Shown here in pieces: positions 40,401 to 46,400 of a stretch of 64,000 nucleotides of DNA. How positions within the stretch are numbered: the stretch's first letter is position 1; each line of letters starts with the position of its first letter. The stretch lies in NCBI RefSeq assembly GCF_003018255.1, contig NZ_CP027440.1; one strand, given 5' to 3'. Position numbers: made by a program. Source of the DNA: Escherichia coli. GTDB taxonomy: Bacteria > Pseudomonadota > Gammaproteobacteria > Enterobacterales > Enterobacteriaceae.

Positions 40401-43400
40401 ATGGTGAAGACCATCGCACCATCAGCCAGAAAACCGAATTTTGCAGGGTGGGCTAACGATATCCGCCTGATGCGTGAACGTGACGGACGTAACCACCGCG
40501 ACATGTGCGTGCTTTTCCGCTGGGCATGCCAGGACAACTTCTGGTCCGGTAACGTGCTAAGTCCGGCCAAACTCCGCGACAAGTGGACCCAACTCGAAAT
40601 CAACCGTAACAAGCAACAGGCAGGCATGATAGCCAGCAAACCAAAACTCGACCTGACAAACACTGACTGGATTTACGGGGTGGATTTATGAAAAACATCG
40701 CCGCACAGATGGTTAACTTTGACCGTGAGCAGATGCGCCGGATCGCCAACAACATGCCGGAACAGTACGACGAAAAGCCGCAGGTACAACAGGTAGCGCA
40801 GATCATCAATGGTGTGTTCAGCCAGTTACTGGCAACTTTCCCGGCGAGCCTGGCTAACCGTGACCAGAATGAACTGAACGAAATCCGCCGCCAGTGGGTG
40901 CTGGCTTTCCGGGAAAACGGGATCACCACAATGGAACAGGTTAACGCTGGAATGCGCGTAGCCCGTCGGCAGAATCGACCATTCCTGCCATCACCCGGGC
41001 AGTTTGTCGCCTGGTGCCGGGAAGAAGCATCCGTTACCGCCGGGCTGCCAAACGCCAGCGAGCTGGTTGATATGGTTTACGAGTATTGCCGGAAGCGCGG
41101 GCTGTATCCGGATGCAGAGTCTTATCCGTGGAAATCAAACGCGCACTACTGGCTGGTTACCAACCTGTATCAGAACATGCGGGCCAATGCGTTGACTGAC
41201 GCGGAATTACGGCGCAAGGCTGCCGATGAACTGTCCTGTATGACCGCACGAATTAACCGTGGTGAGGCTATACCTGAACCAGTAAAACAACTTCCTGTCA
41301 TGGGCGGTAGACCTCTAAATCGTGCACAGGCTCTGGCGAAGATCGCAGAAATCAAAGCTAAGTTTGGGCTGAAAGGAGCAAGGGTATGACGGGCAAAGAG
41401 GCAATTATTCATTACCTGGGGACTCATAAGAAATTCTGTGCGCAGGACGTTGCCGCGGTAACAGGCGCAACGGTAACCAGCATAAATCAGGCTGCGGCTA
41501 AAATGGCACGGGCAGGTCTTCTGGTTATCGAAGGTAAGGTCTGGCGAACGGTGTATTACCGGTTTGCTACCAGAGAAGAACGGGAAGGAAAGGTGAGCAC
41601 GAATCTGATTTTTAAGGAGTGTCGCCAGAGTGCCGCGATGAAACGGGTATTGAGGGTATATAAAAGAACATCAATGGGTACACAATGATGAAACAGGTGA
41701 GTTGAGTTCAAACTGTAGTACAATTCTCTCCAGTTTGAACAGGAAAGAATATTCTATGAACCCTTATATTTATCTTGGTGGTGCAATACTTGCAGAGGTC
41801 ATTGGTACAACCTTAATGAAGTTTTCAGAAGGTTTTACACGGTTATGGCCATCTGTTGGTACAATTATTTGTTATTGTGCATCATTCTGGTTATTAGCTC
41901 AGACGCTGGCTTATATTCCTACAGGGATTGCTTATGCTATCTGGTCAGGAGTCGGTATTGTCCTGATTAGCTTACTGTCATGGGGATTTTTCGGCCAACG
42001 GCTGGACCTGCCAGCCATTATAGGCATGATGTTGATTTGTGCCGGTGTGTTGGTTATTAATTTATTGTCACGAAGCACACCACATTAAAATAATTTGTTT
42101 CTAAACGACTAAAATATGGAGGCTCTTATATTTATATGAGCCTCGTTTTATGCTTTTTGTTAATGTCTTTATTTTTTATGTATTCTTTTGTGCTTTCAAT
42201 ATTATGGCGTAAGAAAATTGCAATACGATTATTGTTGTATATTCAAGATAATGTGACCTTAATTGTCTTTTTAAATAAAAATTAAACAAAAATTATATCC
42301 CACCACTAAGGTTTATAAAAGCATACGTTAGCAGGTGTCACCATGAAAAAAGCCATAGCATATATGCGATTTTCATCACCAGGTCAGATGTCTGGTGACT
42401 CATTAAACCGACAGAGAAGACTTATTGCTGAATGGTTAAAGGTAAATAGTGATTATTATCTTGATACCATAACATATGAAGATTTAGGATTAAGTGCATT
42501 CAAAGGAAAGCATGCACAATCAGGAGCTTTTTCGGAATTTTTAGATGCTATAGAGCATGGTTATATATTGCCAGGAACTACATTGTTAGTTGAAAGTCTG
42601 GACAGACTTTCAAGAGAAAAAGTCGGTGAAGCGATTGAACGTCTGAAATTGATTTTGAATCACGGTATTGATGTTATAACTCTTTGCGACAATACAGTCT
42701 ATAATATTGACTCTTTGAATGAGCCATATTCATTAATAAAAGCCATACTTATAGCACAAAGGGCAAATGAAGAAAGCGAGATAAAGTCAAGTCGGGTTAA
42801 ATTATCATGGAAGAAAAAACGGCAGGATGCACTGGAATCAGGTACGATTATGACGGCGTCTTGTCCGAGATGGCTCTCCTTAGATGACAAAAGAACGGCT
42901 TTTGTTCCAGACCCCGACAGGGTGAAAACTATTGAGCTAATTTTTAAACTCAGGATGGAAAGGCGCTCATTGAATGCAATAGCCAAGTATTTAAATGATC
43001 ATGCTGTAAAGAATTTCTCAGGAAAAGAAAGTGCATGGGGACCTTCTGTAATTGAAAAATTATTAGCGAATAAAGCTCTGATAGGTATATGCGTACCTTC
43101 ATATCGTGCAAGAGGGAAAGGGATAAGTGAAATCGCTGGCTATTATCCCAGAGTCATATCAGATGATTTGTTTTACGCTGTACAGGAAATTCGGTTGGCA
43201 CCTTTTGGTATTAGCAATAGTAGCAAGAATCCTATGCTAATAAATCTACTTCGAACAGTTATGAAGTGTGAGGCTTGTGGTAATACCATGATTGTTCATG
43301 CGGTATCTGGAAGTTTGCATGGCTATTATGTTTGTCCGATGAGAAGATTACATCGATGTGACAGGCCATCAATAAAAAGAGATTTGGTTGATTATAATAT

Positions 43401-46400
43401 CATTAATGAATTGCTTTTTAATTGTAGCAAAATTCAACCAGTTGAAAACAAGAAAGATGCTAATGAAACTTTAGAGTTAAAAATTATTGAGCTTCAGATG
43501 AAAATTAATAATTTAATCGTTGCATTGTCTGTCGCGCCTGAAGTTACCGCTATAGCAGAGAAAATAAGACTATTAGATAAGGAATTAAGAAGGGCTTCGG
43601 TATCATTGAAAACTTTGAAGAGTAAAGGTGTAAATTCATTCAGTGATTTTTATGCTATTGACTTAACCAGTAAAAATGGACGAGAGTTATGCCGTACACT
43701 TGCCTATAAAACATTCGAAAAAATCATAATTAATACGGATAATAAAACCTGTGATATCTATTTTATGAATGGCATTGTTTTTAAACACTATCCTTTAATG
43801 AAAGTAATATCCGCCCAGCAGGCGATAAGTGCTCTCAAATATATGGTTGATGGTGAGATTTATTTCTAAATAATGATCTCGGATTTTAAGTTATGCTATG
43901 GTGATAAAGTGCAAGACAGAATTAATTATCTTTGACGAAACTTAATGGGTAATTACTTTGTTTGCTCCCACAAGCGAGTTTTGTACGGCTGTATTGGGGT
44001 AGTAAATGAGCTATACAATCTTAATCATTTGTTAGGTGAGAACTCTTGGTCGCAGATTCAAATACTGAAAATACGTGACAAATTATTATGAGCAAAATGG
44101 TGTATGTCACGTATTTTGAATGGTAGGTTAAAAAATAACACCGACTTTCGTAGGTATTACTAATAATAAAGCAGAGTTTTTAGATAGTATCAATGTGCTT
44201 TGTGTATATTGTGGCAAATAATTGGGTTGGGGGTACAATTGTGATTGCTTTTGCATAAACATTGCGCCTTTATGCATAATGAGATAAAGGAATATCAAAT
44301 AAAATAACGATAGGTCATAACAAAGAGGTTTTTATGAAAACACTTATCGTTTCAACTGTATTGGCATTCATAACATTTTCTGCGCAGGCTGCAGCATTTC
44401 AGGTCACTAGTAATGAAATAAAAACAGGAGAGCAACTTACAACGTCTCATGTCTTTTCTGGATTTGGGTGTGAAGGTGGTAATACATCGCCCTCATTAAC
44501 CTGGTCTGGTGTTCCTGAAGGTACCAAAAGCTTTGCCGTAACTGTATATGATCCAGATGCACCTACAGGCAGTGGTTGGTGGCATTGGACTGTTGTTAAT
44601 ATTCCAGCAACAATAACATATTTGCCCGTTGATGCAGGGAGACGTGATGGAACAAAACTGCCGACTGGTGCTGTTCAAGGCCGAAATGATTTTGGCTATG
44701 CTGGGTTTGGTGGCGCATGTCCTCCTAAAGGAGATAAACCACATCATTACCAGTTTAAAGTATGGGCTCTAAAAACTGAAAAGATTCCTGTAGATTCTAA
44801 CTCCAGCGGAGCGTTAGTTGGTTATATGCTTAATGCTAATAAAATCGCAACCGCTGAGATAACACCAGTTTATGAGATAAAGTAGGGTGAGAGTATGCTG
44901 GCAAGAGGTAAGACTAACTTAAAGATCGAAGAAATACGGATGCATAAACATCATGAGATTCATAGGGTTAAGCCTCTTATGCCAGCTTTGTGTCGTATCC
45001 GTCAGGGAAAGAAAGTTATCAATTGGGAGACGCATACTTTAACTGTTGATAATAATCAAATAATATTATTTCCTTGTGGTTATGAATTTTATATTGAGAA
45101 TTATCCTGAAGCAGGGCTTTATCTTGCAGAAATGCTTTACTTACCCATTGATTTAATTGAGAGTTTCCAAAAACTTTATACGGTAACTGATCAAATACGT
45201 AACAAAACAAGTTTCTTTTTACCTCAGAATCCTGAGTTAATATATTGTTGGGAGCAACTAAAAACATCTGTTTCCCGAGGCTTCTCAACTAAAATTCAGG
45301 AGCACTTAGCAATGGGCGTTCTACTTTCGTTAGGAGTGAATCATGTTAATCATTTACTTTTATCATATAGTAAACAATCATTGATAAGTCGTTGTTATAA
45401 CCTGCTGCTATCCGAACCCGGCACAAAATGGACAGCAAACAAGGTTGCTCGATATCTCTACATTTCTGTTTCTACATTACATCGCCGTCTAGCAAGCGAG
45501 GGGGTAAGTTTCCAAAGTATACTGGACGATGTGAGGTTAAATAATGCGTTGTCTGCTATACAAACGACGGTAAAACCTATAAGCGAGATTGCCAGAGAAA
45601 ATGGTTATAAGTGTCCTTCTCGTTTTACTGAAAGATTTCATAATCGTTTTAATATAACACCAAGAGAGATAAGAAAAGCTTCCAGAGAGTAAAAGTGTTT
45701 TAAGAAGGAGCAATTCTATCGATTTTGATTTTGGGAAATCAACACGGCATAATTATGTCACCGGAGCCTGAACAACTCCGGTGACTTCTGCGCTAAACGG
45801 GGACGTTTATGCGCACATACAATCCAAACTCTCTTCTCCCTTCACAGATGCAGAAATGCACCTGCAATTCTTTGCATCTAGCGTTTGACCTCTGCGGAGG
45901 TGAAGCGTGAACCTCTCACAAGACGGCATCAAATTACATCGCGGCAACTTCACCGCTATCGGTCGGCAGATCCAGCCTTATCTGGAGGAGGGCAAATGCT
46001 TTCGCATGGTGCTTAAACCGTGGCGTGAGAAACGCAGTCTTTCCCAGAATGCACTCAGCCACATGTGGTACAGCGAAATCAGTGAATACCTCATCAGCAG
46101 GGGTAAAACGTTCGCCACTCCAGCTTGGGTAAAAGATGCTCTCAAACACACATATCTCGGTTATGAAACCAAAGACCTGGTTGATGTCGTAACCGGTGAT
46201 ATCACCACTATCCAGTCGTTACGCCATACCTCCGATCTTGATACCGGAGAGATGTATGTCTTCCTGTGTAAGGTTGAAGCCTGGGCGGTGAATATTGGCT
46301 GCCACCTGACTATTCCGCAGAGCTGCGAGTTCCAGCTGCTCCGCGACAAGCAGGAGGCGTAATGGCTACACCGCTTATTCGTGTCATGAACGGACACATC

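Follow-up and report, generated by a model that had tools for sequence, protein, structure and literature searches.

Here we examine a 64,000-nucleotide stretch of Escherichia coli DNA (NCBI RefSeq assembly GCF_003018255.1, contig NZ_CP027440.1), referred to below as the window, and in it an AT-rich block of five genes, emrE, ylcJ, ybcK, ybcL and ybcM, that lies between ren and the nin genes of a lambdoid prophage. The block is probably an accessory ('moron') region of the type found in prophage DLP12 of strain K-12, placed in a hotspot between ren and nin and composed as a mosaic of modules that also occur separately, with the large serine recombinase (LSR) YbcK as one of its accessories. The block is already known, being the annotated DLP12 arrangement, and it is common; the remaining interest is in the orphan recombinase, not in the block. 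Few recombinase genes of E. coli K-12 are still without a known function; ybcK is one of them, and it appears to encode an LSR that is intact, under selection and not an integrase, and that has orthologues in many genera.

A mosaic block in the ren–nin interval

Related phages share both flanks of the block and carry other genes between them, as the first-pass annotation of this DNA had proposed in describing the genes as cargo inserted between ren and nin. In PhiR30_1, the flanks are homologous up to 41652 and from 45723 (BLAST), and an acyltransferase and a lipoprotein gene replace 41653–45722. The O157:H7 prophages at icd and the Perceval/4A7-type phages are homologous over 41300–43910 and again from 45723, with either 280 bp or a minus-strand esterase gene between 43910 and 45723; in O157:H7 prophages and phage Perceval, emrE–ylcJ–ybcK is therefore met with no ybcL–ybcM beside it. 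A compact emrE–ybcL–ybcM arrangement of around 1,945 bp that lacks ybcK is found in 2,312 records in the 90–95% identity band. The block thus has the two properties expected of a moron: its composition is unlike that of the backbone, and it is absent from otherwise collinear relatives with the same flanks.

Strain W, the sole strain with the compact arrangement that we inspected, carries these three genes as an islet between fliE and yedK with no surrounding prophage (locus L012, 11988–14141; around 90% identical to the phage copy). Homology to the islet begins at 41679, 10 nt before the ren stop, and extends to the ybcN start codon. Because the islet retains pieces of phage backbone (the last 10 nt of ren and the nin promoter region), it is itself phage-derived. 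Where the islet has 11 bp, the window has a segment of 2,088 bp (42091–44178) containing a terminator-like hairpin that follows emrE, ylcJ, ybcK and 309 bp of 3′ sequence. The last 268 nt of this segment (43911–44178), a spacer, are part of the insert in the comparison with strain W and go with ybcL–ybcM in the comparison with the O157:H7 and Perceval variants. The location of the islet outside a prophage implies that emrE, ybcL and ybcM may be expressed apart from one.

The interval to the right of ybcK is a variable slot in its own right. Between 43910 and 45723, 80 viral contigs hold at least nine cargo classes within constant edges, and ren, emrE and ylcJ precede ybcK, in that order, wherever the contig is long enough. 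Near-identical E. coli copies filled our IMG/VR scan, which was meant to find diverse relatives and serves as a census only. The cargos include a 63-aa open reading frame (ORF), a BD-FAE esterase, ybcL–ybcM, versions disrupted by insertion sequences (ISs), and a P22-antirepressor-like ORF of 107 aa that stands alone or is followed by one of four different genes. One of these second genes encodes BstA (PADLOC, E = 3.6e-121; IMG/VR locus L159, 12146–13090), a published abortive-infection protein of prophages (PMC8585504); BstA is found only in the alternative cargos of other phages, not in the block of the window. Uncharacterised genes of 118, 169 and 260 aa also follow the P22-antirepressor-like ORF in this slot and are candidates for new accessory or defence functions, and the slot is a place to look for new cargo or defence genes more generally.

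In these respects the interval resembles other lambdoid morons and hotspots (lambda rexAB, bor and lom, and BstA loci), in which low-GC cargo likewise lies between backbone genes and each slot has alternative cargos; BstA itself is among the alternatives here. It differs from the classic moron, a single transcription unit, in consisting of three nested modules, one of which has a further variable slot of its own. The description of the block as independently distributed modules in a BstA-hosting lambdoid hotspot should aid the reading of similar AT-rich inserts.

The mosaic reading can be put as follows. Module A would be emrE with its own terminator-like hairpin, module B ylcJ–ybcK and module C ybcL–ybcM, and the modules would be exchanged among phages, and between phages and the chromosome, by recombination at conserved edges. 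These edges would be the 3′ end of ren, a promoter-like tail that ends 41 nt past ybcK and the palindrome of the nin promoter. The genes are passenger cargo; EmrE, YbcL and YbcM would be open to independent expression, and they are also met together outside prophages. On the left, the putative terminator after emrE (42119–42144, + strand) has the form GGAGGCTC...GAGCCTC followed by a T-rich tail; the hairpin, with a folding energy of −14 kcal/mol (z = −3.55 against shuffled sequences), overlaps the start codon of ylcJ. In the middle, every alternative cargo diverges right after 43910, and the 41 nt that precede this point (43870–43910) are conserved with ybcK. A conserved TGCTAT(G/A)GT stands directly before this left edge of the slot, and at the end of the tail the window has TGCTATGGT (43893–43901), which looks like an extended −10 element. 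On the right, 45724–45906 is phage backbone that lies directly before ybcN/ninB and is present in phages of every cargo type, including phages without ybcK. It comprises a promoter-like palindrome that always forms the right edge of the slot (TTGATT-N6-AATCAA...CATAAT, 45725–45753), a strong hairpin (45757–45785; −19.8 kcal/mol, z = −3.8) and the start of the small ORF ylcH (45809–45910), all on the + strand. At this edge, the record of phage 82 (X92588) marks a putative −35 and −10, together with a 'possible regulator-binding site'.

Several points weigh against this account. The promoter and terminator assignments consist of consensus matches, folding and one paper, and promoter-consensus matches in this AT-rich DNA occur at chance frequency (17 found, 15.8 expected). 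The exchange mechanism is drawn from breakpoint positions alone, no recombination event having been observed. The 2,088-bp difference, the edges of which have only an AATAAT in AT-rich DNA in common, could have arisen by insertion through some unknown mechanism or, just as well, by deletion at a microhomology. The account also names neither a substrate nor a role for YbcK, and purifying selection as strong as that described below must reflect a specific function, which the account leaves unnamed.

In the window, the backbone genes that bound the block are ren on the left (41386–41688, + strand; PHROG Ren-like exclusion protein, E = 5.8e-42) and ybcN/ninB on the right (45907–46362), and the five genes between them all lie on the + strand (41756–45692). 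The first, emrE (41756–42088), encodes a small multidrug resistance efflux transporter of 110 aa (Pfam Multi_Drug_Res, 121.5 bits; named in the RefSeq annotation of an identical record), the translation of which contains the essential Glu14. It is followed by ylcJ (42136–42285), the gene for a hydrophobic 49-aa protein (Pfam YlcJ, 115 bits) that PMC6001520 includes among confirmed small proteins, encoded between emrE and ybcK. After a gap of 57 nt (42286–42342) comes ybcK (42343–43869), which encodes an intact LSR of 508 aa (Pfam Resolvase, Recombinase and Zn_ribbon_recom; PHROG 95 integrase, E = 4e-120). Beyond the slot edge, ybcL (44334–44885) encodes a secreted PEBP/Raf-kinase-inhibitor-like protein of 183 aa (RefSeq name; Pfam PBP, 143 bits) with a signal-like N terminus, and ybcM (44895–45692) an AraC-family regulator of 265 aa (Pfam HTH_18, 61.5 bits, and HTH_AraC). 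All these Pfam matches exceed the gathering cut-offs.

Most of what the first-pass annotation said about the content and composition of the block stands. The four genes that it named are where it placed them on the + strand, and the Pfam matches back its family identities; it overlooked a fifth gene, ylcJ. Its start for the block, 41702, corresponds to an upstream TTG, whereas the annotated emrE start, giving the 110-aa protein, is at 41756. The GC content is low, as claimed, at 0.30–0.43 over 41800–45600, compared with 0.50–0.56 in the replication genes O and P and 0.50–0.53 in the nin genes (400-bp windows; the flanks average around 0.52). The long AT-rich spacers are also real (42089–42342, 43870–44333 and 45693–45906), and two of the three contain small ORFs, ylcJ and ylcH. 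The suggested check of GC skew gave a positive value across the whole block with no switch, and an Rfam search of 41300–46200 at E ≤ 1 found no RNA family in the spacers.

The suspected likeness to DLP12 is close: 41475–48035 aligns with DLP12 of K-12 MG1655 at 99.3% identity (BLAST; 45 mismatches and one gap over 6,562 nt). The DLP12 order renD–emrE–ylcJ–ybcK–ybcL–ybcM–ylcH–ybcN matches the window in genes, order and spacing, and the near-identity runs from the 3′ part of ren to nmpC. The first-pass annotation had itself named a block identical to DLP12 with no additional features as a result that would refute it, which is essentially what we find, and by that standard the cargo block is ordinary. 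Outside it, the two prophages differ. In the window, ren is intact, whereas IS3 splits it in DLP12; the gene for an nmpC-type porin, disrupted by IS5 in DLP12, is intact here (365 aa; 47969–49066, − strand, between Q and the lysis genes); the early region from int to P is complete, unlike that of DLP12; and integration is at icd with a different tyrosine integrase and an excisionase, whereas DLP12 is at argU with intD. The prophage of the window is still defective, its capsid gene being interrupted. It is therefore a relative of DLP12 that has the ren-to-lysis region in common with it, and not DLP12 itself.

The same block recurs widely in E. coli. A 4.3-kb query (41600–45900) matches several E. 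coli chromosomes at 100% identity, that of isolate 07-4299 among them; over 38001–50000, the identity to this isolate is 99.99%. Of 5,426 complete E. coli genomes, 670 (about one in eight) have the complete block, which is also present, at 99.8% identity, in the viable isolated phages PhiR70_1, PhiR34_1 and PhiR68_2.

YbcK as an intact large serine recombinase

Judging from its sequence and predicted structure, YbcK is no relic: the LSR is complete, competent for catalysis and under strong selection. Its Pfam scores are 69 bits for Resolvase (cut-off 23.3), 54 bits for Recombinase and 33 bits for Zn_ribbon_recom. Alignments of 29 and 24 homologues show no variation at R9, S11, D87, R88 and R91, at the zinc-binding Cys309, Cys312, Cys331 and Cys339 or at residues of the E-helix, so that neither the catalytic serine nor the zinc ribbon is disrupted, a defect that the first-pass annotation had said would count against its proposal. 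The protein has the features that define the LSR family: a catalytic domain with the serine and the Arg/Asp/Arg residues, followed by a recombinase domain and a zinc ribbon with an embedded coiled coil. The AlphaFold model (mean pLDDT 80) has the full LSR architecture, with β-strands at 307–330, helices at 346–427 and a C-terminal sheet, and the top Foldseek matches of this model are full-length complexes of serine integrases, including PhiC31 and Bxb1, with their att sites (E down to 4.8e-19). By sequence, phmmer found no match to YbcK among PDB sequences at E ≤ 0.01. A profile of the YbcK family matched only RING fingers in the PDB, through the zinc-binding region, and we rejected these matches as spurious.

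Compared with the LSR integrases of phages (PhiC31, Bxb1, A118/LI and TP901-1), YbcK has the same domain order, a long E-helix after the catalytic domain, the Arg-Ser and Asp-Arg...Arg catalytic motifs and the four zinc cysteines. Unlike them, it is too diverged to be recovered by a PDB sequence search, its gene lies inside the early-right operon instead of beside attP, and that gene resides together with a tyrosine Int/Xis pair of working type and has no att site that we could find. With the small serine invertases (Gin of Mu, Cin of P1 and Pin of e14), YbcK has its serine recombinase chemistry in common, and several of its orthologues lie, like invertase genes, directly after tail-fibre and tail-fibre-assembly genes. 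In contrast to the invertases, it is a large three-domain protein with no inverted tail-fibre copies or crossover sites beside it, and the E. coli gene is far from the tail genes.

A decaying, functionless integrase gene left behind by a past recombinant phage could account for a ybcK that sits in a cryptic prophage of K-12, is silenced there and has no recognisable site. The selection data refute this and leave it scarcely credible: dN/dS, measured against the most diverged alleles, is around 0.07, and 84 of the 85 E. coli-type copies, which represent 49 distinct alleles, are full length (508 aa). Full-length orthologues at 40–60% identity with invariant catalytic residues occur in at least ten genera, and ybcK is also carried by viable phages.

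How ybcK is expressed bears on what the enzyme might do. Upstream of ybcK in K-12, the untranslated region has been reported to hold a Rho-dependent terminator, and impairment of Rho or NusG raises the level of ybcK mRNA (PMC4150792). Since ybcK reads in the direction of pR, the rightward early promoter, behind both the emrE hairpin and this terminator, it is probably silent in the lysogen, and YbcK would be made only through N-type antitermination after infection or induction. Overexpression of ybcK gives higher tolerance to sabinene by an unexplained mechanism (PMC7181518). Our literature searches found no report of a recombination activity or function for YbcK.

Sites, orthologues and the role of YbcK

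The first-pass annotation noted that the recombinase had no obvious cognate site. A repeat search of 30000–64000 agrees, having found no inverted or direct pairs above chance and no cognate recombinase site; the convincing repeat families in this interval are operators and ori iterons only, and the long-range inverted pairs (18–32 nt, 70–94% complementarity) are at chance level. Together with the comparison of flanks and the rejected palindrome described below, this search gives no sign of an attP beside ybcK with an attB in the host, or of paired sites for inversion or excision, of the kind expected of an LSR integrase. The failure to find such sites lowers the claim that YbcK is a phage integrase, not the claim that it is an LSR enzyme.

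The same annotation had suggested that the recombinase might mediate an inversion or secondary integration. YbcK does have a full integrase architecture, and its position and orientation point to transcription early after infection, when an integrase would be useful. But besides the missing repeat pairs, orientation is constant in all 85 E. coli-type copies, as are the neighbours wherever the contig extends to them, the carriers that could be located sit at tyrosine-integrase sites (icd in the window and in O157:H7, argU in K-12), and relatives with visible ends have a tyrosine integrase. Inversion within this window is largely refuted, and we regard it as very unlikely that YbcK inverts a DNA segment or gives the phage a secondary route of integration. 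YbcK is an accessory and not the integrase of the prophage; here integration is done by the tyrosine Int/Xis at icd.

Members of the YbcK clade are full-length proteins of around 505–520 aa with 40–60% identity, found in Atlantibacter, Yersinia, Erwinia, Ewingella, Pantoea, Kluyvera, Citrobacter, Cedecea, Enterobacter, Pluralibacter and Lonsdalea. Their genes occupy several kinds of accessory position. In E. coli, Atlantibacter RC6 and P. dispersa, the gene lies between the replication genes and the nin/Q antiterminator genes; in Erwinia, Ewingella, Yersinia, Atlantibacter and Enterobacter ludwigii, it follows the tail-fibre genes at the prophage end. It adjoins RexA/RexB in Cedecea (locus L027, 12270–13554) and a tyrosine integrase in Pluralibacter, and in P. 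wallisii it is part of a relaxase-bearing element. In two cases, the LSR gene is the gene nearest the 3′ end of a tRNA-Ser or tmRNA gene. A homologue of ylcJ, which might have pointed to a directionality factor, was not found beside the ybcK orthologues of other genera; it accompanies ybcK in E. coli only.

Every element with visible ends also has a tyrosine integrase; one is present in this window, in PhiR70_1, in P. dispersa, in Pluralibacter and in the Atlantibacter prophage, which was followed along its full length. The Atlantibacter prophage was considered as a case in which the LSR might be the sole integrase, and this was rejected: its far end has a tyrosine integrase with an arm-binding domain and an Xis-sized ORF, so the LSR is accessory there too. 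A direct repeat of 12 nt lies just outside both ends of that prophage, with marginal significance (E = 0.09). The same prophage encodes a KAP NTPase and an Acb2/Tad1-like anti-defence protein (locus L181, 4398–5723 and 8379–8615).

Could YbcK instead mobilise a small integrative element, either emrE–ylcJ–ybcK or the 2,088-bp ylcJ–ybcK segment, with the module breakpoints as attL and attR? The discrete indel relative to the strain W islet (42091–44178) would fit such an element, and in several genera the LSR gene lies at the edge of a small cargo cluster: umuDC–LSR in Ewingella, Enterobacter and Pantoea, autotransporter–LSR in Yersinia and LSR–RexAB in Cedecea. The umuDC–LSR module of Pantoea and Enterobacter, moreover, has sharp ends in different flanks. 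When diverged orthologous loci are compared, however, DNA similarity ends within a few bases of the ORF and no att-like flank is conserved. The breakpoints at 41652, 42090, 43910 and 44178 have no att-like dyad or common core apart from AATAAT, they fall on promoter- or terminator-like elements also present in phages without ybcK, and no E. coli ybcK was met in any setting other than ren–emrE–ylcJ. A TTGAT-N-ATCAA palindrome occurs at the right edges of both the E. coli slot and the Pantoea/Enterobacter umuDC–LSR module, that is, in two systems and not family-wide. We find self-mobilisation improbable.

That palindrome was also tried as the YbcK site and rejected, because 14 of the 16 other loci lack it and phages without ybcK have it. 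The umuD–umuC–orf99–LSR module is 88% identical between Pantoea sp. RIT-PI-b and Enterobacter ludwigii (loci L021 and L022, about 8062–11887; locus L018, 8163–11530); its ends are sharp, and the flanks in the two are unrelated. It has a LexA box upstream of umuD, and the same gene order is found in Ewingella.

Under the mosaic reading, in which YbcK is cargo, the enzyme would act in trans on a pair of sites; nothing shows it acting on this block. One might imagine it as an effector in conflicts between mobile elements, serving defence or superinfection exclusion by recombining or breaking competitor DNA at an att-like site. The family does sit in accessory slots near defence genes (BstA in the E. 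coli variants and RexA/RexB in Cedecea), and its catalytic residues are strictly conserved although integration does not need the gene. Against this, no PADLOC model matches YbcK, EmrE, YlcJ, YbcL or YbcM, and defence neighbours are confined to a handful of loci, while the same slots hold an esterase, an efflux pump, a porin and umuDC. The apparent silencing of ybcK in lysogens is a poor fit with a standing defence, and we know of no serine recombinase that acts as a defence effector, which counts further against the idea. On balance it is unlikely, though this idea and self-mobilisation are the foremost candidates for the actual role of YbcK.

We tentatively suggest a more general possibility, that the YbcK clade comprises stand-alone accessory LSRs in the cargo slots of Enterobacterales prophages, accompanied by a tyrosine integrase, with no adjacent att site and under strong purifying selection, the reaction of which is unrelated to the integration of their carriers. 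If so, the target, acted on early in infection, might belong to a competing phage or some other mobile element, or be a locus of the host. Finding it would settle a small question and could provide a new recombinase/att pair for genome engineering.

The carrier prophage and neighbouring elements

The block is carried by a lambdoid prophage next to icd with a tyrosine integrase, an excisionase and a complete early region (exo/bet/gam, kil, cI, cro, a cII-like gene, O, P and ren). Its late region ends in an interrupted major capsid gene (fragment at 58037–58282); given this truncation, followed by a second integrase-bearing element, the prophage is defective. The second, satellite-like element follows the capsid fragment (58037–64000) and extends past the end of the window; it has a tyrosine integrase (58445–59680), a primase (61847–63667), an HTH regulator, an Abi-like protein, YlcI, an Icd-like protein and DUF4222.

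Beside cI, in the position of lambda rexAB, the icd prophage has another AT-rich cargo (GC 0.33–0.37), comprising a serine/threonine protein kinase gene and an adjacent ORF for a hypothetical protein (36493–37539, − strand, and the adjacent ORF). Further upstream, between roxA and phoQ, the RefSeq annotation shows an element of around 15 kb (about 6660–21930) that looks like a capsid-forming phage satellite, with genes for tail and lysis functions missing from it. Its products are a tyrosine integrase, an HTH regulator, Ash, an Icd-like protein, a RepA helicase, SSB and PerC, together with an HK97-type capsid protein, a protease, portal, head-closure and connector proteins, an HNH protein and small and large terminases.

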